64,000 nt of DNA. It comes from Vicugna vicugna (taxonomy: Eukaryota). This document shows positions 6,225-42,945 of the stretch, one piece after another. The notes beneath the pieces were generated by a model that worked only from the letters and a program-made list of their open reading frames with translations, was not told the DNA's origin and searched no databases. Each line of letters starts with the position of its first letter. Within the stretch, counting starts at the first letter, position 1. Position numbers and translations under genes: made by a program. The stretch spans positions 1 to 64,000 of the forward strand of contig MU057637.1 in NCBI GenBank assembly GCA_013265495.1, given 5' to 3'.

Positions 6225-6229
6225 TCAAT

Positions 6230-16198: not shown

Positions 16199-16975
16199 GG
16201 ACAGCTCGCAGAGCCGCAGTCCAGTGGGCAGCCCGTGCCCCGAGCTATCCGCCTCCCCCCGCCCGCCAGCCCGAGGCCTCCCGAGCCCCGCCCGAGGCCC
16301 CAGCAGCAGCGCCGGGGAACACCTACATCCACAACCTGCTCGTGGACGGACCGGTCAGGGTGCGCCCGTGGTGTGCTCTAAGGACTCACTCCACATCTGG
16401 GCCGCCAGCCCAGGAAAACCTTTGCTAGCATCACACCAGCTGAGGTTGGTGTCCTGATTGGCAAAGACTGGTCAAGATTTTTCATGAGTGGGTTAAGGCT
16501 TGGGGGCCAGAAATGTTCTGTGATCCAGGACTCACTGCTGCAGGATGGAGAATTTCCCATGGATCTTTGTACCAAGATCATAGGTGGCACACTCACCTTC
16601 AATATCATGGTCACCGTGACTGCCAAGACGCTAGTCCTGCTGATGGGCAAAGAAGGTGTCCACGGTGGTATGATCAAGAAATGTTATAAAATGGCCTCCC
16701 TCCTGTGGTGTTCCCAGTACTGACCTCATCTGTCCCTTCCCCCTACTGCTCCCCACTGATTTTGCACCCCTCTCCTTCTCCCCACATACACCACTTTTAT
16801 TTTTGTGGCCATTACCTCACATCCCTTTTTGCTGCCCAAGCCACATGGTCAGAGGTCAGGGCTGGATGGACACCTCCCTCTTCTCATACCCTTCCTATGT
16901 GTGGTTGGATAACTTTTTTGTTTTTTTGTGAATTTTTCCTGAATAAAAAAAGATTCTACCAAAAAAAAAAAAAAA
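16199..16975 (+). pseudogene. PFN1: Processed pseudogene of profilin-1
   Basis: Intronless. ORF 16484-16723 reads [26 protein letters not shown]...[32 protein letters not shown]. The N-terminal codons lack the ATG and are frameshifted. GC-rich 5'UTR; AATAAA 16942-16947; poly(A) 16961-16975; TSD AAGACTG(T/C)TG at 16189-16198 and 16974-16983. Confidence 0.97.
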
Positions 16976-19900
16976 GACTGCTGATCTGAGCCAAAAATAT
17001 GTAATTCTCCTTTAATGTCAGATGCTACCTTTTCAGTAGCCTTCCCCTAAGTTGCTTTCCATTCAATTGCCTGCTAGCCCTGCCAGCCCTGCCTCCCCAC
17101 TCATGAGATTCACTTACCTGTGGCTCTGCTGCACAGGACTGGGAGTACTCAGACCATCCAACTTTCTCCTCCAGGATGGCAGACATCTCTGACCATTCGA
17201 CTGCCATATTCCGTGATGTTTGGGTTCAAAGTATATTTGTGATGGTGGCGTTTCCAAGCTCTATGTAGGGTCTACCTCCATGCTTAAAGTCATAGCTGGG
17301 TCTGCCATGAATGTCCCCCTAATAAGCCTAAGGTTTCTTCTTAGATTTACACAAAATGTACATTTTTGTTAATCTATGACTTTACTTCTTTATTTCTTGC
17401 AGTGTCCATGTTACATATTTTTAGATAAAAGACTCAATTTCAATTAAAATTAACTCAAACATATCTCCTTTACAATAGTATCAAGAAATTGGAAACAACC
17501 TTGAAATATGGCGGTCATAATCTCATGGGTTTTATTCTCTTTTTTAAGCAAAATAAATCATTATCTCCTCTCTTCCCAGTGGGGACACGGGGAGGGGAGC
17601 ATTAATCCTGAATGTTTACTTATGTCTAAAAAATAGCTTTTCAGAGTGGGTGAACAGACTAAATGTGTTTATTTTTTATAAGAGGTAGGAAATTAAACTC
17701 CTGAAGACAGTTTCTTTACCTTGTTAATTTAATTTATGAAAAAAATGTGGTGAAAATTGCAAATCTTCTTCAGACTTCTCAAAGATATTGGGACAGGTAC
17801 CTCATCACAAAGGTCATCACCAATGGTCTTTCTGATTCTAGAGGAGGAACCTATTATGAAATAGTAAGCAATTAGTCAATATTATTATTTTATTCTGAAC
17901 CTTTGAGAATTAAGACATAAAATGAGAACAATTTCCCTTTGGTGCGGTATTTATCCATAATGAGAAGCAACTAATCCATCCATTTACTAGACCCCTGGAG
18001 GGCGGAGACATGTGGGTTGACTCTGAGCAGCTGCTGAGCTGATGGAAATGATGCTACTGTTCCCACGTGTCTCACTGTGCTCCCCCTAGACATTTGGTTT
18101 TCATGACTCTCTCTGAAGTTAAAGAAAGTCATAATGGATCATCACCGCATTTAGATTGTGATTGTGATTCCTCCCACCTAGAAATAATGTGGCTTCCCAG
18201 GCTCAGGCCAAAGGACTCTCTCTCTCCCCAATACATAGGGGTAGGTTAGTGGGGGAGTGGGACACCATTACCCCATGCATAGAACAATCATTTTAGAAAT
18301 GTTTTAACTTATAACTTAAACCATGAGATAATAAAGTGTAACAGAAACATTAAAGCCAATGGTTTCAACAACTAGCTATGCAACACTGACTAGTGCAAAA
18401 CATCGGTCTGATACAGAAAACTGATAACAACACCCACCCTGAAAGAATTTATGATCTAGTAGGAGAAAGAGAAAGAGCAGGTATTCAACAAGTAAGTAAG
18501 CATATAAGTAAATACACAAATACTGAAAAAATGAATTCTCTACTAGAAAGAGGAGCAAAGAAGAGCTGGCATTTCCAACTTACAGCATCAGAAGGCACGG
18601 AAGGCTTGGGGATATGAGCATGAAATAAAGTTGAATTGAATGTTCTTTTGTCCCTTTTATAGTTTTCCCAAATGTAAATGGATTCCTTCCATAAGGCAGT
18701 GTTGTTATAGAACTAACGCTACTTTTAATATCCCTAATTATCAAATGTGGAACAATGCAGATGGCAGGCTATTCAGGATTTTTCTTCCTTTGGCTTTCAC
18801 CGTGAGAACCAGATCACTGCTCATTAAAACCTCCTGCAGAGGGCAAACAAGGGAGGGGAGGGAGCTGAAATTCCTTTTGGAATTTTTTGGGAAGCATTGG
18901 TGAAAGTTTTGGTGGAATTGTAGAAACAGTCTCTTTATACTGTCTTCTTCTTTCAAAGAAACCTTGCTTCCCATCAGTGAGATTTATATGGAGACTAGAA
19001 AATGGCATGTGTGCTTTGACTTTCTGGATAAAGGAGTCTTCAAAGAAGGACTTCAAGAAAATAAAGTTTTCTCCCATTTCATATCAAATATTAATTTATA
19101 TTTTTCCTCTTGAAATTGATTTTAGAACCGAAAACAAACCAAGATAAAATATTTCTCAACTAACAGAACACATCAGTATTCACAGAACTAGCAGAATCTG
19201 TTTTTATGTTAAAATTGATGGACCTTAAATTTAGTAAAGAAATAAACAAGTGAGAGCAACAAAAAAAATCTAAAAGTAAAGTTAAAACAACAACAACAAC
19301 AAAGAATGACTTTAGAATAGTGATTCTTATCAAGAAAGGGGCATGAATTAAAATGATGAAATCTGTGGTGAAAATTTCTGAAGCCCCAGATGCTAATCAG
19401 CCTCCTCATCCACTGCACCCCCACGGCCATTGCCTGTAACACGGAGAACAGCTTCAGACAGTAGCAGGCTGCACGTGTAAGCAGTATGGGGGCTTCCAGA
19501 ACTTTATTTAAACCCAATAATATAGAACTGATTCAATAAAAGAGGACAAGTGAGGGGAGGAACAACTGTATGGGCATTAGTGATGACTAAGTTTTGGCTG
19601 TTTAAACAAATAGTCCACAAAAATGAATTCTTCTGTGAGATAAAGACTTCTGTTTTTATTACTTTTAAGGCTTTTTGATGGTTGTGACGTTCCTGGGCTT
19701 CCAAGATACATATGAAAACTGTCTTTTTATACACTAGATTGGAAAACAGAACAACTAATAATGATGATAATAATAGGTATTAAATCTGGGTACTACACGC
19801 AGCATACGAGGACGTGCTTCACAACAACAACACGAGAGCTAACGGGCATTGAGCATTGTGATGTACAGTCACCGATGAGCAGTTTTACATGTTTTAATTC

Positions 19901-20059
19901 ATTTATTCCTCACGACAATTTGTTACACTTGTTGGATCAATGAGGAATTTTGGGTGGATGGTGTCACATTTTAATCTAAATTTCTTGTGTAAGTCAAATA
20001 CAATTTCCTCCTACCAGGATTTTGATTGTCTGATGTCAATTTATATGCACAGTATTTTT

Positions 20060-20345
20060 TATCTCCCATTTGAAAACATAGTGGTAAAATACTCATAACA
20101 TAAAATACACTATCTTCACCATTTTAGGTGTACAGATCAGTAAAGTTAATAACAAGTACATTGTTGTAGAATCTTCAGAACTCTTTTCAAATCATCTTAC
20201 AAAACTGAAATCCCATACCCAGTAAATAACGCACAGACCCACCATTTTCCTTTCTGTCTCTATGACTCTGTCTACTCCAGACACCTCATACAAGTAAATT
20301 CACACAGCAGTTGTCTTCTTGTGGCTTCCTTATTTCATGTGTCAC
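20060..20345 (-). mobile_element. Old L1 3'-end fragment
   Basis: gtggtaaaatactcataacataaaatacactatcttcaccattttaggtgtacag... is a typical antisense L1M 3'UTR. Confidence 0.7.
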
Positions 20346-21619
20346 AGAATTTTTGAAAACGTATGAAACTATGATAAGGCAAATATATTATTTTCATGTT
20401 ATAAGAAACATATCTTCATTTTATAAGAAGGTTTTCAAAATTATTACTATCTCCCAAAAAGGGTCATGACAAGTGGTGACTTCTGTGCTTTTTTTAACTC
20501 AAATAATGATTTTAACTTACTGTTATTTTTTTTATTTCTAATCATTTACTTAGAGCAAGAAAGGTTTTAAATCAACACATGCTACCAATAACAAAATATA
20601 TATCAATAGTATACACTTAAATTAAAATTTATTATCAATAAGATATTTGATACACTTTGCATTGTCAGTTTCTCAAATGAAAACTTTGAGACACACTTTA
20701 CTATTCTTTATGAAGTAGATATTATTTTCACAAAGAAGTGTATTCCTAAATATTTCTAAGTGTTAATTTTACTTATTTCCTTTCTTTTTTAATAAGTGGG
20801 AAAATTTTCATCAATTACAGATACCACAAACCCAGCTGAAATAAATATTATATATTCCCAAGGCAAGCAGTCATCACCATTTTGCATTTACAATTTAATT
20901 CTTAAACTAAAATTTGAAAGCACCAAAGTCAAATAAGAACCTCATGTTTTTGTAATCTGTCAGTTAATTTTATTATTAAAAATTAGTTTTCTTCCTTTAC
21001 AAATAAAATTAAGTAGACTGTGGCTCTTCCTTTGTAAAAATAAACAACAAAAAAAAAAACCCTCCAAAAAACTAATAATGTGTCAGTTCAGATTTCAAAC
21101 TTCAGCAAAACTTTTTAACAAAGCTCAAATGTTCTTTTCACCATTTTTCTTTCATGACCTCTGATGTTGGAAATGTAAATTGACATTATAAATATCAACA
21201 GAAATAATGCCACAAATTCCATTTACCTTGTTACTGAAGATCATTTCCCTTCTTTTCATATTTATTTACCTTGAGAATGTAACGTTATCAATTATTCAAC
21301 AATATAGAAAGAGTGTTGGACAATTTCATACTACTTCAAAGCATAAGAAATCCCTCTTATTCACAGTGTATAAATCTCAAAGTGTATGTGTGCACATTAT
21401 ATACAGTAAAATGAACATTTCATTGATATAAAAACTTACTCCTCCGACTACTAGCTTTCAAATGGAAATTGAATAAAGTTTGGCTAAGTTGAAACAATTA
21501 TTTTAATTTACAAAACCATCATTTTTCCTAAATCCTGTACATATGAATCAGGCAGCAAAATTGTATATTAAGATCTGAATTATTTGAATTCATTACTTAA
21601 ATTTAGTTAGTAAGACTAC

Positions 21620-24130
21620 TGTCTTGACATGAATTCCTCCCAAAAAGGCCCCCTCACAGGGAATTTCTCTGGGAATGTGACCCCAAAGAGTAGGAATAAT
21701 GAACAAGGTGGTGAAAACAGGGAAGAATTAAATGCTGAAGTAAGGTTATGTTATCACAATGACCATGGCCGACCTGTGCTGGAGTCCACAGGCTTTCCGG
21801 GAGGCCTCATCAAAGCCAGGAAATGAAGAGAAGGCTTTTCCCACAGGCTTCCACCTGCCGTGGATTTAGTGGCCCTTGGACTTTGACTATCACATAAGGA
21901 CTTGTAGGCCACACATTCCGCATCCTGCATTTCTTGTCAGAAAGCTTCCAGGAAAGGAAAGGAGAGGCTCACACCTTAGCCAGAGTAAGGGACTCCCCAA
22001 TTGCACCTGCAGGAAGCTGGTCAAAGTCTCCAAGAACTGGTAGTAGGACAGGTGCCCGCAGTAGGACACGGGGCCAGGAGGGTGCTAAGTGATGCTCACA
22101 GTGCGTGCTGGTGTACTAGAGCCTTAGCACTCCTCAGACCCACCTTTTCTCTCCCTTAGCTCTAATCTGCCCCTGAGTCTCCTTCCAGGTGCTGGCCAGC
22201 TGCAATCTCCATAAGAGGGTTTGTGGAACATCCCGGTGGCCACAGCTGCTCCCAAAGCCTTGCTGAGAGTCAGCATCTTTCCTCCCCACCACTAATTCTA
22301 AATTTCTCTCATCTTTGGCCAGTGTCTCAGCTGATCTAAGGTTGCCTGCCTGGTAGAATGAGCCAGACCGTCTTCATCTAGGTTTGATTTGCTTTACCTC
22401 CATGAGGACATAGTTGCTGTCAATGCCAAGATACCATTATCACCTGGCACAAAACACCAGGGGAAGCATCAGTGAAGTTTGTGGCTATTCCTTCCTGCCT
22501 CCACTATACAGCAGTGATCCAGGTTCTTCACGTTAATAAGGGCAAGTTAATCTTGAAAATATATTAACATATTAATTCTCTTTTGCTTGATGATCCAGGA
22601 ATGAGAAGGCCAATCACTGGAATCAGGAGCCCAAAGTGGCTAGATGATAGTCAGATCCTGTGGAATGCTTATGTTGTCCTCTGGTGGAAGTGTTTTCCTT
22701 CTTGGGAACCAAGACCTCCAATCCAGCAGAGCCTAAAGCTTCAGACACAGGAAGCATAAACTTTGAAAGTGAGTCACTAGGTGTAAGGGTAAATGGGGCC
22801 ATTTGTACTCCCACCTCTTGGTTCCTGACAGGACAGCACCATATGTCAGCCATCGATACAGCACACATAGCACACACTTTCCCCAACCTGAAACTTGAGC
22901 TGAGCCATCAACAGCTCATCCAACCACTGTATCAGATCAACTCCTTCTAGGTGATGAGACAGATGGTAATCCCAGTGGAATCTGTGCTCATGCACTCCTA
23001 GTTTCACAACTTTGTCATAAATTAATCCCTCAAACACAGTGTTGTAGAGGATGTTGTGCCAATAAATAAGGCATTTTGTAAGCCCCAAATTCATAGTGCT
23101 GGTGGAGGCTTTGCTGGCAGAGAATTAAAATGCATTACCATTGTAGGTTTACATTCTAGCAAGGATGAACTGTTGCCATCTCTAGAGTGGAAGGGATCCG
23201 ATAAATTTAATCTGATAGCAAATGGCTGGCTGGTCTTCTTGTGGGATAATATATCACAGACTCAGGACCAGGCTTTACTGTTGACAAGCTGGGCACTCAG
23301 AAAGGAGCAGGGTCTAGATCTGCATTAGGGATAGGGAGCCCAGTCTGCTGTGCCCACGGCTCTTCCCAGCCATGGTGTCATATCTGTTCATGCGCCAATC
23401 GTCCAAACAGGGGTCTTCTAAAGGTTAAGGATGTAGTATAGTTCACATTCACAGAGCAAACTAAGCTGTCCAGTTGATTGCTGAGAGTCTTCTATTCAGA
23501 GAGTGCTCTTTGGTGGGCACTAACACGAGACAATGGTCTGCATGCTATACTCTTTCCCCTTCCTTTTCTCTGTTTTCTTTTTTTTTTTTCCCCTGGCTTT
23601 ACCAAAGCCCCTGACAAAAAGTCATTTGTTACTTCCCAGTAGTCTATACATATCCATAGCTCAGGCCACTTCTGCCTTCATATACTGTAATGTATGAATT
23701 GTTCTGTTTGGAGCTCTTCCCACTGGAAGGATCTCCCTTTAGGGATGCGTTCCTTTAGGGCGAGCTCTGACTGCAGCTGTAGTGTGACAACAGTTCATTT
23801 ATGGCTGCCATCAGTATGCCACCCTAACCCACATGTTGAACCAGGCCAGCATTTTTTTTTCCTCTTTAATCAGCACAGCTATTTCTAGCTACCATCATAT
23901 CTGCTGGTTCACATGGCCTGATATTCCAGGAAACTTGCACAACTGCCTGGGCCTCCTGAAGACCTTTTTATTTATCTGGGCATCATTTAAGTCCAATAAG
24001 TGGTTGGTACAGTTTTCTCATAAGGCCCTTGGTAGAAGGGTAGGTAGAATGTTTATAATTATTCTTATGTCATTACAGAGTCCTTCCTCACGGGCATTCA
24101 CCCTCCATTTTAGCCAATGATATCTAGGTC
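21620..24130 (-). mobile_element. Degenerate ERVL provirus remnant: pol/integrase and dUTPase-like region (about 22160-24130), with a probable 3' LTR (about 21620-22138)
   Basis: ORF 22846-23094 (GLTKCLIYWHNIL...FHWDYHLSHHLEGVDLIQWLDELLMAQL) resembles ERVL integrase (GLTECLIHRHGIP...IHWSYHVPHHPEAAGLIERWNGLLK). ORF 22623-22886 contains LPVSEALGSAGLEVLVPK. Purine tract GGGAGAGAAAAGGTGG on the minus strand at 22140-22155. Confidence 0.8.
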
Positions 24131-25068
24131 TGTTCAAATTAAATAAATCCAGAAATTGGGTGCAGGCCCTGGGTTTTGCATTGTGACAGTTGATGTTAGG
24201 AATCTGCTCACCATGTATTTACTGGGGAAAAATCTGTGTATAAATAGACCTTCACAGTTCAACCCCTGTTGTTCAAGGGTTCAGAGTATTGACAAAAGAC
24301 CACTGGAAGGATGAGAGAATGGAAGTTGGATAAGCAAGGGGGTGAAAACAAGCTTTGAATTCTGATTCACCCACGACTTTGAGCAAGTTACTTAATTTCT
24401 GTGCTTCACTTTATCTGTCTGTAAAATTGGGGGATAACAGAGACTTTATGCAGCTATTCACATGGATTTTTCTCACTGAAAGTGGCTGGTTTCTCTTCAT
24501 CAACCTTTGCTGCCTCATCCTTTAGGTGCTTTAGGTCAAATTTAGCCTTTATTTCCTCTAGGAAGCTTTCTCCGTCGTCCCAGCGGTTGAGATGGCTTCC
24601 AATGTCTTTCAGCCACATGTGCCTCTCCTACAGTAGCTGTTGTCATACAGAATTGCAATTGTCAGATCACTTATCTATCTGCTCCACTAAGACCAAACAC
24701 TCTACTGGAGCAGGGATTATGACTATCCTAGCCCATTTAGCACGTATTGGAAAAAGTATATAAATTTCATTGAACTCTCTTGTAGATTGTAAGGATTAAG
24801 TGAAGTAATGTGTGTACAGCTCCTCGCAACTTAAGTGCTCAGTGAATAGTAGCTTTAAAACAGCTCCATTATTTTTCACATCTTTATCATAGGGCACAGT
24901 TCCTGGCTTGTACACATTTGTATCTCAATAAACACTTGCTGAATGAGAAGTTCAGGACAGACATGATGAGATCCTTAAGTATGTCTGCCAACAATGATTT
25001 CAACTGCTGTCAATTTTCCTTTCAGTATCCTAAATGCTGTCCTCTGAAACTCCAGCGTGCATTAAGTT

Positions 25069-25129
25069 NNNNNNNNNNNNNNNNNNNNNNNNNNNNNNNN
25101 NNNNNNNNNNNNNNNNNNNNNNNNNNNNN
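25069..25129. other. Assembly gap
   Basis: Run of N. Confidence 1.
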
Positions 25130-25579
25130 TAAAAATCCAATAATTGTAAGATGTCACTGTAGAATGGAGAAAAAGGAGAGGTAGCGGGAAACCACAGAGG
25201 TGCTGTGAGGTAAGTAGGGCTTGGGGTGTCTCTCTGTATTTTCTTTCTTCCTTTCTTCCTTCCTCCCTTCCTTCCTCTCTTTCTTTCTTTTATTTTTTAA
25301 CTTTCACTTAATTTTATTTTGTTTCGGAGTTCTACTGAGTTGTCTTCAGACACCTTCCTTTCATATCTTAAAAATTGTATCACAAGGATGTTAGGAGAGA
25401 ATTCAACAGCCTAGGGGGTCGCAATAAAATAAAGCACATAGTTCATATGATACGGAGTACTTTCTGAATTTAGACGTTATCCCTCCGGGTGAATGGAGGA
25501 AAACTTACACTTGAGGGTCCCTTTGAATAAATGGAGTTCAAAACTTCCCAGTCCCTCCGTCTTTGTTCCTCTTTTCCTG

Positions 25580-26372
25580 GGTTCGGAGGCCGCCTCTACC
25601 GCGGGGCGCACCTGCCACTCTCACCGCCGGCCAATCGGCGGCTCCAGCCCGCAGGCGGCTCCGCGGAAGGAAGAAGGGAGGGGCTCGCAGCAGCCAGCGG
25701 GCGGGGCGGGGGGTGCTGGGGGCGGGGCCAACGGGCGCGGGTGGCTGCGCGCGCTGCCGCCGCTACCGCGTCACCGGAGTGCAAGTGTCCGTGTTTACGT
25801 CCTAGTGGAGCCTAAGTCAGCAGCCGACTGGCGGCATTGTGCCAATACTGAGGCACAAAGTTTAGGAGACACGACCCTCCGTCAAGCCAGCTCCTGGCTG
25901 CCGGGAAGAGGAGGAGGAGGGGCGGGGAGATCGGCCTCGGTACCAGCGGTGGAGACACACACACGGTTCCCGACCACCTGCCTGGCCCCACGGAACCGCG
26001 CCTCACCTCCGGAGCCCCGCAGGTGCAGCACCGCGGCCTCGCCCCACGGGGTGGCTAGGGCGGGCGCCAGGCGCTGCGGCAGCTCGGGGCTTGTAAACAG
26101 ATGCCCCCGCACGTGACCGTGTGAACTACTTGCTCCTGGGGGCGTGTTCTCTTTCCCGCGAGCTGCGCTACAAAGGAGCGGGGCGGTCGGAGGGCAGAGA
26201 GGCGGGCGAGCAAGCAGGCAGAGCCCCCCAGCGTTTTAGGATGGCTGAAGGCGCCTGGCGAGGGTGAGCGGTGGGGGGCGGGGGTGCTGTTGGGCACGGC
26301 ACAGCCAACGGCTGAGTCCGTTGGCGGGCAGGGCTGGTGACCCCTTCCCCGGGGCCTGGCTCTGGAGCCACC
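25580..26372 (+). promoter_or_regulatory. CpG-island promoter and JMY-like 5'UTR
   Basis: High CpG content; CCAAT 25631-25635; GC boxes 25699-25706 and 25719-25728; FOX-type TGTTTAC 25792-25798 and GTAAACA 26093-26099; E-box CACGTG 26110-26115. Ends in Kozak GAGCCACC|ATG. Confidence 0.85.
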
Positions 26373-27459
26373 ATGTTTTTGGCGCTCAAGGAGAGTCTCC
26401 AGTTGGACTGGGTGGCCTGGAGCTGCATGTGTTCTACAAGCAGAAGAAGCACAAGTTCATCTTCATCAACTCCTGGAATGAGATTGAGGGCAGTTTTGCC
26501 ATAACCTGCTACAACCGGATGGCCCAGAGGCAGAGGAGCGGCACCAGCGGTCAGGTGGGTGCGGGATGGGGCGCCAAGCCTGGCACACCCATGTCCAACA
26601 GGACCTGCAGGCTGTATAGCCCAGCAGGCAGGGGTTGGCCTGAGGCCACTGCCTCAGTGACTCAGGACAGAAGCCCTGGGCCCAGAGGCTCCCGTCCTGG
26701 ACCCATAGGCTCCCATCCTGGACGGAGGGTGGCTCTCCATGGAGCATGTGCAGCCTTCGAGGGGACCTGCTGCCCTGAAGTTTGTCTGGAAAAGAGGTGG
26801 GAAGCCCTATCTGGATCCTGGTGTGGGCCAAGTCCAGCCCGATCCTGAGCACAACTGCAGGTAGAGATGTGCCGCTGTGGCAGCCCTCTTGGCGCCTATG
26901 GAGGCCCAGGTGTCCTCAGTGCGGGTAGTGAGCGCCTGCAGGATGGTCACCTAGATTGAGGTGCTAGAAATGGTGAGGGAGGGTGAGGCGGATCCGGCAT
27001 ACCTGGGACTCTCGGTCACGAAGCTTTGGACGCCCGCCGTGGAGCTGGAGTCCCCGCCAAGGCGTGAAGCTGGGCCGGGCACTTCTTCCAGGATCTGCGC
27101 TCAGTGCACCAGCAGCCAAGCCCCGTGAACTCGCAGCTGGAGCCGTGCTTGCTGGTATTCCTCGAGGAGATCTTGGGCATGTGGACAGTGCTATTTGGGG
27201 GCGTCCCGGAGGTGACTGAGCAGGAGATCGCCACTGTTACTGGGAAAAGGGAAATAAGAATTACCTCGTTTCTTAGTCACCCCTCAAAGAAAGAATTTTT
27301 AACGAGAGAAAGAAAGTGTGATATAAGTCAGATTTTTATTAGTAAAATAAAAAGGTAGTAAAAATTCGTATATTCCCAAGAATTTGGAGCTGGCCAATCC
27401 AAGAGGGGAAAAATGGCGCTGCTTCTTTGTTTTTCTGTCTTACATCCTGGCTTAGGGGC

Positions 27460-27492
<33 letters not shown>

Positions 27493-28048
27493 TTGATTGA
27501 TTGATTAATGGCTCAGGTTCTTTGAGTGAACAAGCTGATTGACAACTCAAGTTCCTTATGCTCTGGTTGACAGCTCAGGTTCCTTGTGCTCTGGCATGCC
27601 CATCCCCTTTTGGGCAGGTTTTTACCCATGAAGCACATAGAGAAACCAATGGGAGGGGGCTCAGACTGTAATGTTAATTACATTACAATGAGCATTGATT
27701 GAAGTTATGCCGGGTCCTTGTCTTATATGCAGCCGCAGCATTTTGATTTTAACTGGCTTCTTTTGCTGGCCCTCATTTAGAGAAAGTAAAAATTTCTGGA
27801 AACCCTAATCCTGAATGCATACATACTGTTATTTCCTGGATTGTTCCTTCCCCCTTCCTCTCCCCCTGCCCAATGCTCATTTCTATCTAACTACCTACCA
27901 TCACCGAATTCAGGTCTACTTGGGCCACGACCTGGACACCTGTGGCTGGAAGATCCTCTCCCAAGAATTCTTCATGGAAACCCACGACCGGGAGTATTAT
28001 GAACCCTTAGCAAGCTGCAGCAGGAGGGCCAGGAAAGGTATCTAGGAG
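26373..28048 (+). pseudogene. JMY: Non-processed, disabled copy of JMY coding exon 1 (junction-mediating and regulatory protein)
   Basis: Translated pieces are colinear with recalled JMY N-terminus: MFLALKESLQLDWVA / HVFYKQKKHKFIFINSWNEIEGSFAITCYNRMAQRQRSG / SPAGRGWPEATAS / EAQVSSVRVVSA / VNSQLEPCLLVFLEEILGMWTVLFGGVPEVTEQEI / QVYLGHDLDTCGWKILSQ / RARKGI*E. It ends at donor GAG|GTAAGG (28048/28049). It carries frameshifts, stops (e.g. TAG 28043-28045) and an LTR insertion. Confidence 0.95.
27235..27900 (-). mobile_element. Solo LTR inside the JMY exon, containing (TG)n and (GATT)n microsatellites
   Basis: TGTTAC...TACCA termini; imperfect 4-bp TSD CCAC/TCAC; AATAAA on the minus strand near 27335-27340. 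JMY codons stop and resume at the two ends. The minus-strand start (TGGTAGGTAGTTAGATA) resembles the LTR at 41578. Confidence 0.88.
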
Positions 28049-28366
28049 GTAAGGACCTAGTCTGGGCTCCAGTCATAGCTTTTGGTTACTCACTGCCAAA
28101 GGCTGGAGCCTAGGTCTAGGCTGTGCGCTTCTGGGACACTTGTTTTTCTAGACAAGGGAAAAGGAAAACCTGCTTGTGTATTTTCAATTTCTTGTCCGAT
28201 GGTGGATCACAGTCCCTTATCCTAACAACAGAGTTCTTTCTCACAGGTTTGCGTTTCTCTCACAAAGCCCACACTGGGCTTTACACATGGAAAGTGCAAA
28301 TTGGAAACCATCCAATAAGTTATTTTTTTTCCCCAGGCTTCCCCTTGTAAAGCAGAAAGCTGAAAG

Positions 28367-28437
28367 NNNNNNNNNNNNNNNNNNNNNNNNNNNNNNNNNN
28401 NNNNNNNNNNNNNNNNNNNNNNNNNNNNNNNNNNNNN
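28367..28437. other. Assembly gap
   Basis: Run of N. Confidence 1.
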
Positions 28438-29385
28438 ACTTCCCAGGATGGGTGGGCCCACCACACCTGTCACTCCTGCTTAGGCTCTGGTGACCTTGTT
28501 GTCACTGCGCTGCTCCCAGGAGCACAGAGGAGAAGGCCACGGAGCCTCCACCAGGGCAGCGGTGACTGCTCCTACCCACCAGGTTGTCCTGGGAAACAAC
28601 GGCCACTCCAACCTGTGCTCAGAGAGGTGAAAAGACACTAACCACTGTCCCCGGTGTCCGTGAATCACGTGACCATAGTGGGTCATGTGACAGCCTGGGG
28701 GCTGAAGTCCACCCCTTAGACCTTCTGGGAAAGCACGAAATTCAGAGGCAAAAGTAGGTGAGGCCTGGATGCTCACTTCATGTTTGGGACAGCAGGGCCG
28801 AGACTGTCCTCAGACCCGCTCCTCAGGGCTTTAAATTTGGGGTCACTCCCCTCTGCTGCCCCTGCTCTGCTGCGGGTGTGCCTTTTTCCTCCCACCGCCT
28901 TGAGAAACTACACTTCCTGGGGCAGGGGACAGTTTGCATGAGTTCTGCCTTTGGCCCAGAATTTGGGGCCAAGACCTTAACTGCCCCCACCCAGAACAAC
29001 AGAAATGCAGATGATGGGGGTTGTGGGGTGGGGGAGGAGCTATTGTGCAGATCTGGCCAGGTATAGTCCACGTCTCCACACCTCCCACCTCTGAGAAAGG
29101 GAGCTAGGGTTGGAGCTGCCTCAGGGAACTACAGTCAGGTTGGTAACTTAATCCCAAATGGGAGTTCAAGATTAAAAAAAAGTTCTTTACACTCTAGTTG
29201 CAGTTTTCTGTAAGTTTCAGATTGTTTTAAACTAAATAAAAAATAATTTGTGGTTTTAAAAGAGAAATTAATCATTCTTACACGGGTCTATAAAAAGAGC
29301 TTTAAATGTCACTAATATGATGTGTTTTGCAATGATAATGTAAGAAATTAAAACCCAGTCATCTAGAGATCACAAATTCATTTAT

Positions 29386-29721
29386 TAAAAATGATCCTGG
29401 AATTATATAGCTAGAAGTTTTAAACTTTAAGAAGCCAAAAAGAAAATTCTACATGTTACCAATATTTGCATACCGAATTTGTTATAAATTGCTATTTAAA
29501 ACAAAAACTATGGTAGAAATTTCTGTGGTTTATGACACTGGCATTTCATCTCTAAAAATGATCCTGGAATTACATAGCTAGAAGTTTTAAACTTTAAGAA
29601 GCCAAAAAGAAAATTCTACATGTTACCAATATTTGCATACCGAATTTGTTATAAATTGCTATTTAAAACAAAAACTATGGTAGAAATTTCTGTGGTTTAT
29701 GACACTGGCATTTCATCTCTA
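29386..29721. repeat. Tandem duplication, 2 x 167 bp, one visible mismatch
   Basis: taaaaatgatcctggaatta(t/c)atagc...catctct starts at 29386 and again at 29553. Confidence 0.95.
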
Positions 29722-29758
29722 GGATAGACAGGCTTCTTAAGAAAAACATCTTAAAGAG

Positions 29759-30045
29759 TATTATGGACTGAATGTTCACACGTTCAAATTCTATTCTGCC
29801 CCTCCACCCCCTTCCTTTTCCTCCTTATGAGATGCTCAGAGGTACTAAGAGGTGAGGCCTTCGGAAGGTGATAAGGATTAGATGAGGTCGCGAAGGTGGA
29901 GCCCTCCTGAATGGGATAAGTGTCCTTATAAGAGTCATCAGTCTGCACCGCTTTCCTTCCGCCCTTCGTTCTGGAGTGAGGCCAGACCCAGGCACTGAGC
30001 AAGCAAGACTGCGAGCTGAGATTCTGGAGCTGCTGCCACCACCGC
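29759..30045 (+). mobile_element. MaLR (MLT1-like) LTR fragment
   Basis: tattatggactgaatgtt...ggtgaggccttcggaaggtgataaggattagatgaggtc...gtgtccttataagag is typical MLT1 wording. Confidence 0.7.
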
Positions 30046-30049
30046 CAGC

Positions 30050-30760
30050 ATGACAGCGAGGGAGCACCCGAGGGACCCAGCCCCTGTGCGCTGGCCCAGC
30101 CGAGACCCGCGCCCAACCTGGGGCCAGCGGGAGCCCCGCCCCCGTCTCCCCCTCCCCTCCCCCCGGCAGCCGCAGCTGCACAGGCCGGAGCCCGAGCCGG
30201 CGGCCGGGGGCCGGGAGGCGGCTACCTCGGGCGGGCCTAGTCATCGGCTCCGTGGTGAGAGGGCGCTGAGAAGGGGCCGGAGCTTCTGTCTCATCCTGGG
30301 GCGTGGGGCAAGGGACCCCCAAGGTGGAGGGACGGGGTCCCAGCCGCAGCGACACCTGTGGGAGCCGGAAGCCGGGGCGGCGCCAAGCGGAGCTGGCTGG
30401 ATCCCCCACCTCGGTGCCATCTCCGCCACCCTCCTGCGTCTATAGCATCTCGACCCTGAGTATATGAGCCGGGACCCCAAGTTCGGCCAACAGTCCCCAG
30501 CCAGGGGTGTGGGCGGGGACCCCAATATGAAGTAGTGGCCCGGGCAGCGGGATCAGCAGGACCGGCGCCGCCATCCTTTCCTTCTCTCCTACTCCCCTCT
30601 GCCCCCTTGGGGGTCTTCTCCCTCAACCAGTCACTGGACCCTGACTCCTCGGCAGGACTCCGGGAGGAGGTCTTAGGGCCCCACCCCCTACCCCAGCCCC
30701 GAGGGCGGCGGGTTTGGGGGGACCTGGAGGGCCGACTGCAGCCTTCGCCCAGAGGGAACT
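30050..30760 (+). promoter_or_regulatory. CpG island, probable promoter and first exon of an unidentified gene with a long first intron
   Basis: CpG-rich with GC boxes (ccccgccccc near 30133). Candidate donor GTG|GTGAGA at 30254/30255. Downstream DNA is T-skewed and most L1/SINE inserts are antisense, as expected for a plus-strand intron. Confidence 0.6.
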
Positions 30761-33700
30761 TTATTAAAATCAAAGTACAGAGCATCCCAAACCTGACTGT
30801 CCAGGGACAAGTGGACCAGGACCGGCAGAAGACCCAGCCTGAAGAGGCCCAGAAAGAGAAGAGGAGGGAAGTGGGGCCGCTGCCTCCTCTGCTCTGTCGG
30901 TGATGAAAAGACCTGGGTGGCTGCCCGGCTTAGCGGTACCAGCCCCGCTTATTCCTCAGTAAGGCGCAGGCCCTGCCGCAGCTGCCGCCTCCATCCCGAG
31001 GAGGAAGGGAACCAGCCCACTTACAGCGCTCTGGCTCTTCTGTAAAGTGTGAGTGGCTCTGGGAAGGGGAGTCGAGGGATGGGGAGGAGGAGGGTGCCTG
31101 TGCATCCTGCGGTGTTTTGCCGATGTTTTCCTGGAGTGTTGGGATCATATAGATGAGCCGGGGTACCTGAGTCCTCACTATGGGCAGAAGGCATCAGGCA
31201 GTCCCATGTTTTGTAACATTTTAGTTCTCTGTGGTGTGATACGCAAGCCTGCAGGTTTCTTTTTGTGGAGTTCTGACTTCTGCAGAGTGGACACTTGCAT
31301 GTTTCTGGCCATTAATTGGTAAAAGGAAACTGAGGAAGCCAGAGCATATGTGCGCACAGAGGACATCTCTGTGTATGTAGCTTTTCCTGGTACATCGGGT
31401 GGGAAACAGCGCTGTAGGTTTTGTTTCTGGGCAACTATTACTTGGGTCCCCAAATGGAAGCCTCTGACTCTGTGAGGCCCTGAATGTAAAATTTATTTTC
31501 TTTTCTGCAGTCTTCCTTGAGAGTTTTCATTTCGGCACAGGAGCTTTTTACCTTCTCATTTCCTGGGTGCAGTTCCTGTGTATCAGCAGGACGTGGTAAC
31601 AGAGATCAGTTACTCAGGAAACTTGGGGTTCTTAGGAATCATAACTGATTTGGGGGAGAGCATTTTGTACTTTAACCAGTTTATTAAAGACGTATTTCAT
31701 TTTTCCGTAGCCAAATTTTTTTTTCCTGAGTAGCATATGTCCTAATCGACAGCATTTTTTAATTGGTGGAATGACTTGTGACTTGTTTCAGTTGTCTTCT
31801 CTATCAAATGAGAATGATTTTTTATCCCCTTTTGTTACTTTAAAGGAGAAGCCTACAGAATCTTTGATTTGTATTTTAAGTATCCTCTCAGAGTGCCAAA
31901 TTAAGGTGCAGGAAGATAATGAATATTTTGTATATTTATGCAGAATTTAAGTGTTAGGCATAGGTGGAATTTTACATAACAACGCAGACAGTGCCATACT
32001 GAGGATCACAGGCCCCCGGAAAGCTGTGTGGGCTGAGTTCTGAAGCCACTGCTGAGAGAGGCTCTGTGGAGTGAATGCAAGCCTGGGTCATCTGTGTTAA
32101 CTTTTCCATTCAGGACCTTGATCAAACTTATTTAAAACTTCCTCAAACACTTTTTAGCCTGTACTTTTTTCTTCTAAAGTGACAAATTCTACAAGTTTTT
32201 TAGCCCTCGATTAGCAATTCATTTATGTATCCGAAACCTGTCTCTTTAAAGTTCCAGGACAAGTCCTGAGCGTGTGTTTTGAGAAATGCTAAAATGAGCT
32301 GGAGTTCATCTTTTCCTGGTTTTGTAGATTTTCATTATTCCTCTTTACCATCATCATTCCTGACTGTTTTTGTCTGTTTTACAATCACTTTGCCCTCCCC
32401 TGGAACTTCTCCAGCTGTTTTATTCTTCTTTATATGCCTTGTTCTTGTTATGCCTTTGTTATGAACCTTAAATTCTGTCTATTTTAAATAGATGCTGACA
32501 TTAAATTATTGTGTAATGGATGTAATGTTAGATGTGAGATCAAAGACAACTGTTGCTGGACCTGTTATTTTGTGACCATGAGGAAGTCATGTATCCCATG
32601 TTCCACAAAGATAGGAAGAGAAATCTAGTCCTGCATAGGCTGCTTTTGGGGGGTAGGAAGGGAGGACAAACCAACAAAATAGTTTGAGTGTAAATTATAC
32701 TCCATCAGAGTTTCTTAGTAAATTTAAGACTTTTACTGCTTTTACTATAGATTGGTTAAAACTCATGTCAGTGTTTTATTGCATATTTATTTAGGAGCAA
32801 AGAAACAACAAAGTAATTGGGGGTCCCTGCCTTTGAGATGCTTTTACTTATGAATAGCAGAGACAATGATACACAGATTGCACAAAACTGTAGGGAAAGG
32901 GAAATGAACCAGTTTTTAATCTATGACCACTATATGCCAGAAAGTTTTTGGTATATTATAGATGTAAGTGTGTTTGTACATTTTTCATTGGGGAAATGTT
33001 GATATTGGACTACACAGAACATATTGGAGTGTCTGAGCCAGTGGAAGAAAAGAGCAGCTGGAGATAGTGTTGAAGACTTTTGGAACTGGAGGATGTGGGG
33101 AGCAGAGGTAATTAGGAAGATGGTTGATGGGAAATCACAGGGAAGTTGTTGAGTAGCTTAGGGTCAGTTTGTGCTTGTGTGGGTATGTGTTTACAGCTCA
33201 AAGAATCAGTTGAGAACAATGTTCCTGAAAGGGTAGCTTAAAACCATAGAGAAATTGTATTTTAAACCAAGACATTATACTTGGATTAGGATTTTGTTTT
33301 TCTAGGGAGCCAAGATTTTTATACCATGGTCACTGAAGAGCAATACAGATGGAGGAGTGAAAAAGGTGTTTCCAATATATTAGCATGGTGCTAGTGGTTT
33401 CTGATACAAAGTAATTCAGAAATGGGGCAGTGGACTTTGTTTTGGACAATAAATTTTCGAGTTGAAGTTGGATACTGATGAAATCTCAAGACAGTAAAAT
33501 AATGAGCAATATGCTGAAAATGTAGAATTGGAAGTCATTATCAAAGTATTAAAGTTTCTCAAGAGTGCTGATGGAGAGCAAAGAGCTGACAAATGGGTAT
33601 TTTTACTTGGGAGAGGAGAATCTGTTAAAGTTAGCAAAGGTACAGTAAGAACAGAGATGGATGAGACTCTCCCTAAAATAGATATTTCTAAAGTGAGTAA

Positions 33701-34254
33701 AACTTGAAGTGGAAAAGGAGGAACAGCCAGTCTCAGGACACATGATTATTTTTGAAACTACTGGCAAGCTTTTTGTAGGGTATGTCTCTTGAGGTTAAGT
33801 TCAAAAGAATATGTAGGGTTTCAATGTTAAGGAACTTACACATAAAGGACAGATCTGTTTCACCAAATTCATGTTTTTAAAATTTGCCTTTCATTATCAT
33901 ACTGAGTTTTGTCCCCAACATGATGAAGTGGGGCTAAAATAGCTGGCAAAGAAGGCTGCTTCTCCTGCTGGCAGGTGGTGTGTGTATTTGTGTCCCATAC
34001 AGTGGACGGGACAGCCCTTTGCTGGCATAGCATTGCTGAAAATGCCTTTAAAAAATCTTTTTATTAAAAAACTAACAAATAAAACCAACTTGACACTTAA
34101 AAACTCCTTACATTTTTGAAGCATAAGATGCTGGAAGACTGATTTTTTAAAAATTTAAAACAATTTAAAAATTTTCATTGTGAAGCATGGAATTTACTGT
34201 TGATGCCAACAAGGATTGAGGATTGTGAGGTAGGGAATCTCTATAGCCACACTA

Positions 34255-34334
34255 TCTTGTGTTCCTTAGTTTGAATTCACCACCTCCTTTGTAGTCTTGT
34301 GTTTCTTAGTTTGAATTCACCACCTCCTTTGTAG
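34255..34334. repeat. Tandem duplication, 2 x 40 bp
   Basis: tcttgtgtt(c/t)cttagtttgaattcaccacctcctttgtag occurs twice. Confidence 0.95.
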
Positions 34335-34787
34335 CTTCTTTGGCCTTTTCTTAGGAGTGACTGTTCCAATGGCAGAACTTCCAGGTAAGATCTATTTAGA
34401 TGGGGAGCTAGATGTAAGGTGGTTCTGGAACAGATGCCATATGGGCACCTTCCCTCCTCATCCTCTATCTTCCACAACATTTTTATGCAAGTGAAATCAT
34501 GGTTTGATGAACTTTAAAGGGCAGTCTTTTTGGGTTAACATAATTTACTAGTAAAGGCAGTGGGAAGGGTGGGACTCTGGTAGTTGGAAATGGTAACGTC
34601 ATGTGCTTTGCCCTGGCAACTTTGGGATTGATATGAGATGATTAAAAAGACTTAGGAGTGTGCATTTGTGTTTGACACCAGATGAGCTAGCAGCCCATGA
34701 CTAGGCTAGCAGCAGCCCAATGCATGTACATTGGAGATGGTACTTGGAGAAGTCTTGTGCTGCCTCTGACATCTCGTTGTGTAGAGG

Positions 34788-35015
34788 AGGGGTTGGCCAA
34801 CTTTTTTTTTTTTTTTTGGTGATGGACCAGTTAGTAAATATTTTAGATTTTGTGGACCACATGGTCCTGTCACAATGATTCAGTTCTGCTCTTGTAGTGC
34901 AAATACAGCCGCAGACAATCTGTAGGTGAATGAAGGTGACTGTGTTCTAATAAAACCTTATGCATAAAACTGGAGGCAGGATGGGTTTGGCTTATAGTTT
35001 ATGGACCCCTGATGT
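34788..35015. mobile_element. MER58-like (hAT-Charlie) DNA transposon remnant
   Basis: aggggttggccaactttt...ccagttagtaaatattttagattttgtggaccacatggtc...ggacccctg, with an imperfect terminal inverted repeat. Confidence 0.7.
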
Positions 35016-35514
35016 AGACAACTGCCAAGTCCACCTGCATGCAGTCTGAGAATCCCTCTACTGCAAAGCTGAGATTGGCTATTTCAGGTGGCCTCTGTTT
35101 TCTAAGTGAGATGTGTTCCTTGGGGGCTGTCTTAAAATGATTCTGCAGAGTCTACTGTTCAAGTTACTTTTGCCTCCATAGTAATGAAAACCATGGACTG
35201 AGGAACAGGGGCAATGCCATCTATGAAGGGATGCAGCCAAAAAGTAGGGACACTTGCATTTCTTGTTCAAAGATACCATAATATATAAGGTAATACATAG
35301 TGATGTAATGGCTGTGCATCATGGCCAGAAGTGTCTTTGGAGTATCTGAAGAAACTTCTGGGTATAATTTTGAAAGATTCTGAAAATACGTTGTAAAGCA
35401 CTTACTTTAGAAGTGAAATTAGAAGTGCTTATGGTCTGTTTGAACCAGATGGAAGTATTCGTCAAACTGTAAGAACACTGAGGTTTGATACTTAAGGCGT
35501 CTTAGAGCCTTAAC

Positions 35515-35667
35515 CTCCTGCAGCGCCCGGCGCAGCAGCGCGCGGAGTCCCGCTCCGCCGCCCGGTCCTGCTACCGGCGGCTGCTGTTTCCTAGGCGCCC
35601 CGCACAGCGTGTGCGCGTGCGCGTTAGAGCGCTGCCGCAGCCTGGGGTGACGGCAGCGCGGGGCCAA
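35515..35667. promoter_or_regulatory. Small isolated CpG-dense element with an NRF1-type motif
   Basis: About 150 bp, GC/CpG-rich, in AT-rich DNA. TGCGCGTGCGCG at 35612-35623 matches YGCGCAYGCGCR on the minus strand. Confidence 0.55.
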
Positions 35668-38524
35668 TTATTTCCTAAGTGACTCTATCTCACAAGTGTT
35701 GTTTAGAAAGGATAATTCACCTTGGTCAATTTTACATCATAGCTAGCACCACAGCACTCGTTTCATATGTCAACAAATAGCTGCGTTGGATGATGGTATA
35801 TTTTTGCCTGGTTTCATAAATCTTATTTATCTTTGGGTTCCCCAGTTTCCCTTAGGGGAAAGGATTACTCTTCCAATAGTGACACTTTTTAGTTCGTGTC
35901 AAGCCTGCTTTTACTTTACATAGTATTTCTACACATGTAATAGATACTTCAATTCCTCTTCCTTTAAGAAAGGTGCCTGACAGTTTTATATAAACCGACA
36001 TTTTTAGTATACCTTTTAGAAAGAAGGTCACTGTAAAGTTACTTTCCCATTCATTAGGAGATGATTCTTTCCTTGCTGTTTTTGAAGACTTTCTTTTATT
36101 TATTTATTAATTTTTTTGCCTTTTTAGGTAATTTGTCATTCTCAGGCTTAAGGATGGGTGGCAATTTAAAAGACACAAGGTGTTCCTCTCATATCTGCAA
36201 ATATCCCAAATAGAAATGTTCCATATTGTTGACACATTCAGTGGACCAGGGAAAAGAGTGGAGCATTGGTTTATTTTTCCTTTTTAGTGTAGTTGAATTT
36301 TCATTACAAACAGATGAGTAAAGTTGTTTTCAAATAATGAACTCTTGCTGTTCAACCTTTCTCCTTTGAGACTTTTTCCCACTAAGCAGAAAACCAGCCT
36401 GTCTTATTCCTTCATGTAGTTGTAGGTTTTCCTTGCTTTCTCCTGACCCCTCCTGGGCACATTCTCATGCTCCCTTTCATATGTGTTTAGAGTGTATTTC
36501 CTTAATCAACATGACATTTCCTGAACACTATGGGATATATATTTTCTAATAATTATACTTTTACCCACAAGTATATTTAAAATTTCCTCCTATTCTACCT
36601 TCAGAATTTATGAATTATTTGAGGGAACATCTGTCCTTGATCTGGATACTGAGAGACAGACCAATGTATGACAGTTTTTCTAAAATATTCCCTTAAAAAG
36701 TTTTGAGTAACAATTGATTTCTCTAAAATTGTAAGTTGATACAAGTAAATACAAGATCCTATGTTTGTGTTGTGCTATCCTGCAATGCAGACTTTTGAAA
36801 AATAATACAAATGCACAAGAGTCCTTACTGCTTGAGTATCTTATATTTTGCTTTTCCCCCATCACCTTAGGGACAGCTGGCAGATCAGTCAGATAGCATG
36901 AAGTGTCTGTTGCTTTGCTGTGTGGCCTCTGCCCCCTCTTTTTCCAGCTGAAGGTTGGCTAATGGAGACCTGGGTGGCTTCAGGCAGGAGGCAGCATGTG
37001 CTGAGCTTGTGTCTGTGGGAGCCTGAGTCATGCTGGATGCTCCTTTCTGCATGACGGCTATGAACTTAGGGAATATTAATGGTGCAGAATATTTTTCTGT
37101 CACTTAGCCTTTCCTCTGAGATGATCACCCTAGGATAATACATTGAATGCATCAATATTTTGGGCCAAATATGAAGTAGCAAGACACATTGCTGGTTTGT
37201 TTTTGGAAGAATGTATGTATCTTATGAGGCTTTTAAAATGTCATGCTTTTTAGGTTGGTTAAGGGTCTAATAATAGACCTTTGCATGACATCCTCTATGT
37301 CTGAGAAGGACTTGCCTCACTAGTAGTAGTGGGTAATTTGCAACAATCTCATGTTTGGAAGCACTATGCGTATCTGGAGCCAGCACCGTGTTGCTAGTTC
37401 ACTTCTCATTTCCCTCATAAAATATATTCACACTGTGGAGGCAGAAGATTCATTAGTAAGGCAGTGTCATTCTTAGCTATGTGGCCTGGAATGAGTTACT
37501 TACCCTTTTTCGCTATGGGCCTCATCACATGTGGATGGAAAACCATGTCCTTCCCAGGGCTGTTAGGACTAAATGAGATAATATAAAGCACAGGCAGAGC
37601 TCTCCCAGCCCCACGCATAGGTCAGCGTGGCCCCGCACTATTAATGTGAGTTAAAGGTCATTTACAGTGTGCCGCAGACAGAAGGCTAAGGTCAGGCTTT
37701 ATGTTGCCCAACACTTAAACTCAGCCCTGGAGTTTGACAAATAAAACTGAAATAATTCTACAGTGTTTTCAAAAGCATCTGTACTAGTGTGTGATTCATT
37801 AACATATTATTTAAAAATCTTAAAAAGTAGAGAAATGACAGAACTACTGTGCTTATTATTTACAGAAAAGAAAGACTAATTTGAACATAATTAGAGTTTG
37901 AATTCATCTCCAAAGACCTCCGTAGTGCTTAGATCAGAAAGAATGTTTTTGATGAATTCATTGATTAGCTCTGAAAGTGACTTTGGTTTAAATTGTCCGT
38001 TTGGAAATATCTATTTTTTTAAACATCCTTTGGTTTAATGCTTCGAAATGAAAAGCTTAAAAAAATACAGGAAGAAGTTTAATAAGTTTAATTTGTATCA
38101 TTACATCTCAAACTATGATTGATGGAATTTTATTCAGGTGGTTTTGTTGTAACTGAATTTTGATTTTCTCCTTTTCCTAAAATGATGTGAAGGTGGGGTG
38201 GACATTCCCTTTTCATGCTTAATATTTATTAAATACAGGATCCGTTTTCAGAAATAATTTTCCTTTCCTTCCTTAGATTTGGCATAATCAGTGTTCAGCT
38301 GACAAATTCAAGAAATAAATGCTTCTTCTTCTTTTTTTTTTTTTGTATTTGGGAAGTATTTCTACTTTGAGAGCAATATGAATTTGCTTTCATAGTCTGT
38401 TTATTTAATAGAGTTCTATATTTAAGACAAGTGTATGAAAAAAATCCAAAGGCAGAAAGAAAAGATTGAGATATGTTTCTTAGTACTTTTTATCTTGCCA
38501 ACTCTTGTCCTCATTCCCTGACTG

Positions 38525-38897
38525 CTTTTTTTTTTAACATTTTTCATTTTTTATTGATTTATAATCATTTTACAATGTTGTGTCAAATTCCAGTGTAGGG
38601 CACACTTTTTCAGTTATACATGGACATATATACGTTCATTGTCACATTTTTTTCTCTGTGAGCTACCATAAGATATTGTATATATTTCCCTGTGCTACAC
38701 AGTATAATCTTGTTTATCTATTCTACAATTTTGAAATCCCATCTATCCCTTCCCACCCCCCACCCCTTTGACAACCACAAGTTAGTATTCTATGTCTATG
38801 AGTCTATTTCTGTTCTGTATTTATACTTTGTTTTTTAAGATTCCACATACGCGAGATCTCATATGGTATTTTTCTTTCTCTTTCTGGCTTACTCTTG
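38525..38897 (-). mobile_element. 5'-truncated young L1 3' end
   Basis: Poly(T) head and L1 3'UTR wording. TSD GACTGCTTTT at 38520-38529 and 38898-38907, followed by AA (TTTT/AA endonuclease site). Confidence 0.9.
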
Positions 38898-41389: not shown

Positions 41390-41577
41390 TACTTCTGCTC
41401 ATTTGTATTTCTCACCCTCTGTGTGTTGTTAACTGAGATACTTAACTTATTCTGTGTCTTAAAAAAAAACTTTTTGTGTGTGTGTGTGTGTGTCTCTTCA
41501 ATTGAGTTGTAAGCATTCTTAGGTCAGGGACTACCTTTCTATTCTCAGCCTTAGCTTCCCCATTTGAAAAAGGGTAA

Positions 41578-42754: not shown

Positions 42755-42945
42755 GTGGCCGCAGGGGGGCATTTGGCAACATCTGCAGATGTTTCTGATG
42801 GTCACAAGTAGGGGAACGTTGTGTGTGAGGGTGCTTCTGGTGTCTAGTTGGTAGGGGCCAGGTGTAAACCTTGTACAGGACAGCACCCCATGATGAAGGA
42901 TGATCTGGTCCAAAAGGTCAATGATACCAAGTTTGGGAAACCTTG
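42755..42945. mobile_element. MER20-like DNA transposon remnant
   Basis: caggggggcatttggcaacatctgcagatgtttctgatggtcacaa...gtttgggaaaccttg. Confidence 0.7.

Follow-up and report, generated by a model that had tools for sequence, protein, structure and literature searches.

An antisense JMY RNA as the probable template of a dead promoter-and-first-exon copy in Vicugna vicugna

The stretch of DNA analysed here (hereafter the window; 64,000 nucleotides of Vicugna vicugna contig MU057637.1, coded C565 in the assembly coding used for copies) carries a dead copy of the first coding exon of JMY, together with the promoter and 5'UTR of the gene and the beginning of its first intron. It is probably a retrocopy made by L1, whose template would have been a polyadenylated RNA of the antisense strand reaching from intron 1 across exon 1 and the promoter. 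The inserted piece was later duplicated, and the subgroup to which this copy belongs seems to be transcribed in the sense direction. That the copy arose through RNA of one kind or another, either a trans-mobilised antisense RNA or an orphan 3' transduction, is considered highly probable.

A search with the full-length JMY protein placed all ten coding exons on contig C5010 (minus strand, 11,683,896-11,735,443), with stops solely beyond the exon edges and no Ns in the stretches examined. The match to exon 1 is an open exon of 347 codons with a WHAMM-JMY_N domain, and its best named relatives are all JMY. BHMT-family matches (11.80-11.84 Mb) and a WH1-domain gene (11.585-11.589 Mb) are its neighbours, and BHMT-JMY-HOMER1 is the gene order in other mammals. 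The preliminary description of the window had entertained an actual loss of JMY and had proposed a TBLASTN search of the assembly as the check; the intact ten-exon JMY in its BHMT/WH1 neighbourhood excludes this loss and removes a false lead. A unitary pseudogene at the syntenic JMY position is rejected on the same grounds. Exon 1 alone was found at at least seven further places (C565, C9331, C1200, C11569, C4042, C10661 and C9958), and a search of the assembly with a stricter first pass returned no JMY exons 2-10 beyond C5010 and the WHAMM paralogue on C10346. The latter (7.895-7.959 Mb) also adjoins a WH1-domain gene, mirroring the arrangement of JMY on C5010.

The element in the window is composed of the following features:

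25235..25243, minus strand: copy of the target-site duplication (TSD) beside the tail, with a 9-bp exact core and about 12 bp against the empty site
25244..25298, minus strand: decayed poly(A) tail, T/C-rich on the plus and A-rich on the minus strand, present in neither the JMY parent nor the empty site
25299..26372, plus strand: copied JMY upstream region with CpG-island promoter and 5'UTR (parent -1046 to -1), 83% identical to the parent
25313..25318, minus strand: poly(A) signal AATAAA, separated from the tail junction by 14 nt, the sole antisense A[AT]TAAA in the 2209-nt copied piece
26373..28048, plus strand: dead JMY coding exon 1 with remnants of the WHAMM-JMY_N domain, interrupted by an LTR, from the alignment to the parent and a domain match
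27235..27900, no strand assigned: solo LTR of 666 bp, TG...CA, in subgroup A only (C565, C9331 and C1200)
28049..28169, plus strand: start of JMY intron 1 (121 nt), including the parental GTAAG donor, 92.6% identical to the parent; 28169 would be the 5' end of the antisense RNA copy
28177..28185, minus strand: second TSD copy, the same 9-mer as at 25235-25243, reading with the next bases TTTC/AA, an L1 endonuclease-type site

The alignment between the copy and the intact exon 1 of C5010 (1041 nt, 347 codons) runs from end to end at 81.6% identity (801/982 columns). It bears out the earlier description of a whole JMY first exon with Kozak ATG, 5'UTR, promoter and GTAAG donor (26373-28048, with 1046 nt upstream), and the donor, GAG/GTAAGG, follows 28048. 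The multiple stops and frameshifts then reported are equally real: in the frame of the C5010 parent there are four stops (codons 129, 192, 230 and 346) and, the LTR aside, six frameshifting indels (-1, +20, -10, -1, -4 and -23 nt). The ORF from the Kozak ATG at 26373 comes to 43 codons and the mismatches are spread almost evenly over the codon positions (64/59/70); the JMY reading frame is dead in this copy. Also confirmed were the 666-bp LTR, the N gaps on either side (25069-25129 and 28367-28437) and the absence of JMY exon 2 or any later exon, for which tblastn covered the whole 64-kb window. WHAMM identity, which a better match to WHAMM would have favoured, is rejected, as the same frame is 68% identical to JMY and 41% to WHAMM. 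The full extent of the copied element is 25235-28185, and the earlier bounds of 26373-28366 were too narrow.

Every copy loses its homology to C5010 at the same two points, -1046 relative to the ATG and +121 of intron 1, and the junctions are the same in all copies that show them (left 5/5, right 6/6). Beyond these points, the flanks match C8256 and not the JMY locus. The left flank of C565 (to about 25249) and its right flank (from 28175) are contiguous on C8256 with an overlap of a few bases. C8256 therefore represents the empty site and the JMY piece an insertion, 2.2 kb long (copied parent piece of 2209 nt) and later enlarged by the LTR. Contig C917, considered as an empty duplicate, was rejected, as it has part of the right flank only and does not cover the site.

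The TSD 9-mer is single in the empty site on C8256 (L036 1744-1755). In C565, 9 bp are exact and seven extra letters stand ahead of the right copy, an aged signal; the target reads TTTC/AA in the filled copies and now TTTC/CA in the empty site. The tail tract, 55 nt long, 63% T and pyrimidine-rich, is similarly aged. It ends in a T run in 5/5 copies showing the left junction, is shorter in C11569 and C4042, and in subgroup A is now a CTTC-type repeat. The spacing between AATAAA and the tail is 16 nt in C11569 and C4042 (subgroup B), where it ends on CA, the usual poly(A) cleavage dinucleotide. In the parent, T/GT-rich sequence lies behind the antisense AATAAA, and an AATAAA at such a spacing exists for 4.6% of the positions in a 27-kb stretch around the parent. 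In the minus-strand direction, the element begins with one TSD copy, followed by intron 1 from +121, exon 1 and the promoter in reverse, the AATAAA, a spacer of 14-16 nt, the A tail and the other TSD copy. A TSD, a poly(A) tail and an endonuclease site are described as hallmarks of L1-mediated retroposition (PMC7692494; PMC4859970), and TTTC/AA is given for several L1-driven insertions (PMC4859970, Table 1). The copy shows a TSD with a single empty-site counterpart, a non-templated tail, a poly(A) signal and an endonuclease-type target.

The preliminary description had argued from the genuine splice donor that the piece is not a retrocopy. This was wrong, because the TSD, tail and poly(A) signal are found on the opposite strand and an empty pre-insertion site exists. 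A classical processed pseudogene of JMY mRNA is nevertheless rejected, given the antisense polarity, the retention of the promoter and of 121 nt of intron, and the lack of exon 2. Likewise rejected is a segmental duplicate of the JMY locus itself, since homology stops at -1046 and intron +121 and the flanks come from C8256.

Three further pieces of the window surround the insertion or continue from it:

17000..25234, plus strand: left flank, a duplicate of C8256:13.875-13.887 Mb, 71-88% identical in blocks and 83.4% beside the junction
28186..29139, plus strand: right flank, a continuation of the C8256 sequence, contiguous with the left flank in L036, 79-82% identical
29135..39000, plus strand: next duplicon, from C11790:3.16-3.18 Mb (CpG island and 5' part of a gene), 82-84% identical

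When 26373-28366 served as the query of a DNA search, 40 candidates were scored and 43 matches obtained. Near copies were C9331 (96%) and C1200 (93%), older matches were C5010, C11569, C10661 and C9958, and many matched in the LTR part only. Three supported subgroups were resolved in the tree (bootstrap 99-100), i.e., A (C565, C9331 and C1200), B (C11569 and C4042) and C (C10661 and C9958, which are possibly alleles). Identity to the parent is 82-85% for the copies, or about 86% when CpG sites are excluded; identity within subgroups is 95-96.5% in A, 95% in B and 98.8% in C, and that of A to B or C is 76-81%. Since the junctions are identical in all copies showing them, a single insertion was followed by duplication, giving 6-7 copies. 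The segmental duplication proposed earlier was therefore right for these 6-7 copies, which share flanks beyond the JMY piece, and mistaken for the seed, which is an insertion and not a plain DNA copy of the JMY 5' end. The C11790-derived piece to the right of 29135 is also found in C1200, C9331 and C10661, making the region a duplicon mosaic. The flanks are 79-84% identical to their source loci, so that the flank duplication, the insertion and the A/B split would be close in time; by the usual mammalian rates we take all three to have occurred tens of millions of years ago.

The reading frames of the other copies are also short. ORFs reach 170-188 codons in subgroups B and C before running out of frame, and that from the true ATG of C1200 has 12 codons. 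The 188-codon ORF from the Kozak ATG of C11569 (L012 5119-5682, minus strand; 121/182 identical to JMY) is identical to the database record 'JMY-like [Vicugna pacos]', and the history of the copies suggests that this annotated 188-residue protein could be a remnant. Protein searches for other short JMY-like copies yielded a single named record, that of a sister copy; the remaining matches, as far as listed (120 of 239), were ordinary fragments of JMY.

Several other details of the mosaic were observed. In C4042 the copy breaks off within exon 1, where a later junction joins it to A/T-rich sequence of unrelated origin (L037 3854). The decayed CpG island and apparent non-coding first exon of the C11790 gene lie at window 29934-31050 (L035 1364-2490), and about 9 kb upstream of that CpG island are missing between window 29380 and 29934. 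On C8256 a GC-rich, promoter-like stretch containing two CACGTGAC/CATGTGAC-type boxes (L036 2020-2700) lies some 270 bp away from the insertion point; its decayed counterpart is window 28455-29139. Another GC-rich duplicon (window 6220-8500; L012 2012-3060; L040 113-1708) stands beside an L1-like fragment (4890-6219) and is common to C11569 and C917 in another arrangement; promoter-like pieces recur in this duplication family. Pfam matches revealed a decayed, retrocopy-like profilin at about 16330-16720 and RPL10 (L16p/L10e) at 53400-53980, both on the plus strand. A search with window 39000-57400 returned repeats alone, the self match being missing too.

The LTR has about 30 dispersed relatives at 74-83% identity among the 40 candidates scored. 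At its left edge (window 27229-27240), C9331 and the runs X1, X15 and X17 contain an additional six letters, with which the LTR would acquire a TSD-like flank of 4 bp; the window and C1200 are without them.

Transcription of subgroup A was assessed from sequencing runs, four of the 24 listed being aligned to 24300-29380 as contigs at 90% likeness. Among them, X1 is a DNA run and X15, X16 and X17 are RNA runs from three studies, X15 being RNA by guess. Fifteen of the 41 joints were listed; the splice joints among them have short sides of only 22-27 letters in contigs of 90% likeness, which is flagged as unsafe. The introns found in the RNA-run contigs are:

26264..27913, plus strand: introns with donors after 26263 and 26554 and acceptors at 26390 and 27913, all GT..AG

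The joints were 26262>26390 (X15), 26262>27913 (X15 and X17) and 26550>27910 (X15, X16 and X17), and no GT-AG joint was among those listed for the DNA run X1; the other listed joints fall inside the LTR or at a gap. Loose ends beside the joints carry subgroup A letters, not parent letters, and the diagnostic letters in the RNA contigs are nearer to C9331 or C1200 than to C565, so the C565 copy itself may be silent. The donor after 26554 is GT in subgroup A only and GC in the parent and in subgroups B and C, and the acceptor at 27913 draws its pyrimidine tract, with a branch-point-like CTAAC, from the end of the LTR. In the three joined forms, followed up to 28366, the longest ORF has 55 codons. 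In X15, X16 and X17, the promoter and 5'UTR have greater RNA depth than the left flank, this being contig depth, which is unfit for ranking the parts, and the RNA runs X17-X20 contain only small shares of the words of the segment. On these joints and diagnostic letters, it is quite probable that subgroup A yields a sense, spliced, non-coding RNA.

Given transcription, a start from the copied promoter is slightly favoured. In C565, 50/98 parental CpGs are kept in the -750..-1 part versus 25/97 in the exon (p = 0.0004). The excess is also seen in C1200 (p = 0.03) and at the borderline in C9331 (p = 0.05), these copies being non-independent, and no such excess was found in subgroup B (p = 0.38 and 0.23). 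The transcript is most likely a neutral by-product of a captured promoter, without a selected function. The fuller reading, that a retroposed antisense RNA moved a working CpG-island promoter with a first exon and that this promoter still drives a newly spliced non-coding RNA family in this lineage, with a donor made by CpG decay and an acceptor from the LTR, is put forward tentatively, at somewhat less than even weight.

The events could have proceeded as follows. In the germ line of an ancestor, Pol II would have made an antisense RNA over the 5' end of JMY that began 121 nt or more into intron 1 and crossed exon 1 and the CpG-island promoter. Its 3' end was presumably formed by cleavage and polyadenylation 14-16 nt beyond the AATAAA, which lies 1.05 kb upstream of the ATG. 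L1 proteins acting in trans would then have nicked a TTTC/AA target in a copy or allele of the C8256 locus and reverse-transcribed the RNA into it, leaving a TSD of 9-12 bp and an A tail. The filled site and its flanks were duplicated soon afterwards, giving subgroups A, B and C in mosaic duplications, and subgroup A gained the solo LTR before its own round of copying at 95-96%. The reading frame died, and at least one copy of subgroup A seems to have come to be transcribed in the JMY sense and spliced into a non-coding RNA. Of the two donors used, one is inherited and the other is new (GC to GT), and the LTR assists the acceptor. The promoter and the sense-strand donor, which ordinary retrocopies lose, would have been kept owing to the antisense direction of the RNA, in which splice sites of the sense strand are not used. 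That an antisense JMY RNA served as template is the most likely explanation of the structure of the copy.

Other explanations have to be weighed against an L1-made retrocopy of an antisense transcript. In an orphan 3' transduction, an active L1 in intron 1, antisense to JMY, would have read through its own poly(A) site into exon 1 and the promoter as far as the same AATAAA and inserted a 5'-truncated copy devoid of L1 sequence, the source element being lost or never fixed. The same TSD, tail and downstream AATAAA would result, and intron 1 does contain one L1-like fragment in the fitting orientation (L039 2065-2961). However, this fragment is short and very decayed (33% amino-acid identity to an L1-like frame of the window) and lies about 18 kb from the copied piece, and compared with the L1-like pieces at hand there is nothing L1-like in 4.3 kb or the next 10 kb of intron 1. 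Reading the whole intron against those pieces likewise revealed no young or full-length L1. Because the only L1 fragment recognised in the intron by this comparison is old and distant, a trans-mobilised cellular antisense transcript is favoured, and orphan transduction is regarded as unlikely. A DNA-level event, in which break repair or template switching copied the 2.2-kb JMY 5' piece into a break and a microsatellite accounts for the tail-like tract, would agree with the collinearity of the piece with genomic DNA without an exon-exon junction, with the abundance of DNA-level duplications in the region and with the present CTTC-type repeat of the tract in subgroup A. However, four coincidences would be needed, i.e., a TSD, an endonuclease-type site, a one-ended non-templated A tract, and a boundary lying 14-16 nt beyond the one antisense AATAAA, and such an event is considered improbable.

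The least probable explanation, to which almost no weight is given, is that the window holds the syntenic JMY in a lost state or an assembly artefact between the two gaps. Gaps do stand on both sides, C565 is only 92.6 kb long, and tandem duplications at 13359-14226 and 29386-29721, exact or near-exact (434 bp at 100%, 169 bp at 99.4%), would be local faults; C1200 has the second unit only once, and they are probably assembly artefacts. Loss is contradicted by the ten coding exons on C5010, with stops solely outside the exon edges and BHMT-family and WH1-domain neighbours. As for an artefact, the gaps are occupied in C9331 and C1200 by 36 and 72-75 nt, and 14 DNA runs of four coded organisms, among the 24 runs listed, hold at least half of the words of the segment. 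Sequence order is preserved across both gaps in the paralogous contigs and at the empty-site locus, and the second gap (28367-28437) is spanned by contigs of X1, X15 and X17. The doubt raised earlier about the placement of the segment is largely removed by the collinear paralogues and the empty site, except that the piece between the gaps could still be a swapped paralogue of subgroup A.

Pieces of exon plus intron are known to be moved by L1. An ATM exon with intronic flanks was reportedly moved by the L1 machinery without L1 sequence (Ejima and Yang 2003), and CFTR exon 9 with its intronic flanks is said to have been moved by L1 and later multiplied by duplication of the new locus (Rozmahel 1997). 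Those are internal exons, whereas the JMY copy contains a first exon and a whole CpG-island promoter and is apparently transcribed and newly spliced. WHAMM-like copies reportedly occur in mosaic segmental duplications of human 15q11-q13; in both cases partial copies of the JMY/WHAMM family have been spread in duplicon mosaics, but the seed of the JMY copies is a retroinsertion that duplication merely multiplied. With L1 retrocopies in general, including those of non-coding RNAs, the copy shares the TSD, the 3' poly(A) tract, the endonuclease-type site and the decay after insertion, and like them it records how the parent locus was transcribed (PMC7692494). It differs from them in that its template is antisense to a coding gene, lacks an exon-exon junction and carries a promoter and an exon-intron boundary. 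Inheritance of the parental promoter is stated for about 3% of expressed retrocopies (PMC4772013), and in the Pgk2 type the promoter lies inside a retroposed RNA, the sense transcript coming from a start further upstream (PMC5470649). In these cases, as in the JMY copy, the promoter reaches its new site within the retroposed RNA. That RNA is in the sense direction, however, and an antisense promoter-spanning RNA is not among the routes given in the available text of these sources (PMC4772013; PMC5470649). A literature search outside subscription journals, weak as evidence of absence, found nothing on JMY retrocopies, JMY antisense RNA, camelid JMY copies or an antisense route. The movement of exon-plus-intron pieces by L1 is already known; the proposed antisense route with promoter and first exon, of which no account was found, is what appears to be new here.

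Based on these results, the combination of promoter, exon and splice donor is no proof of a duplication at the DNA level, as an antisense RNA mobilised by L1 can carry all three. Some partial 5' copies of genes in mammalian genomes may therefore be misclassified, and a scan for a TSD and tail on the opposite strand provides a test for them. The copy would also date and map a germ-line, antisense, polyadenylated JMY transcript. If true, the origin argued for here would be a route to promoter duplication that mimics a DNA duplicate, and the copy in the window would be the fossil of an unannotated antisense JMY transcript.
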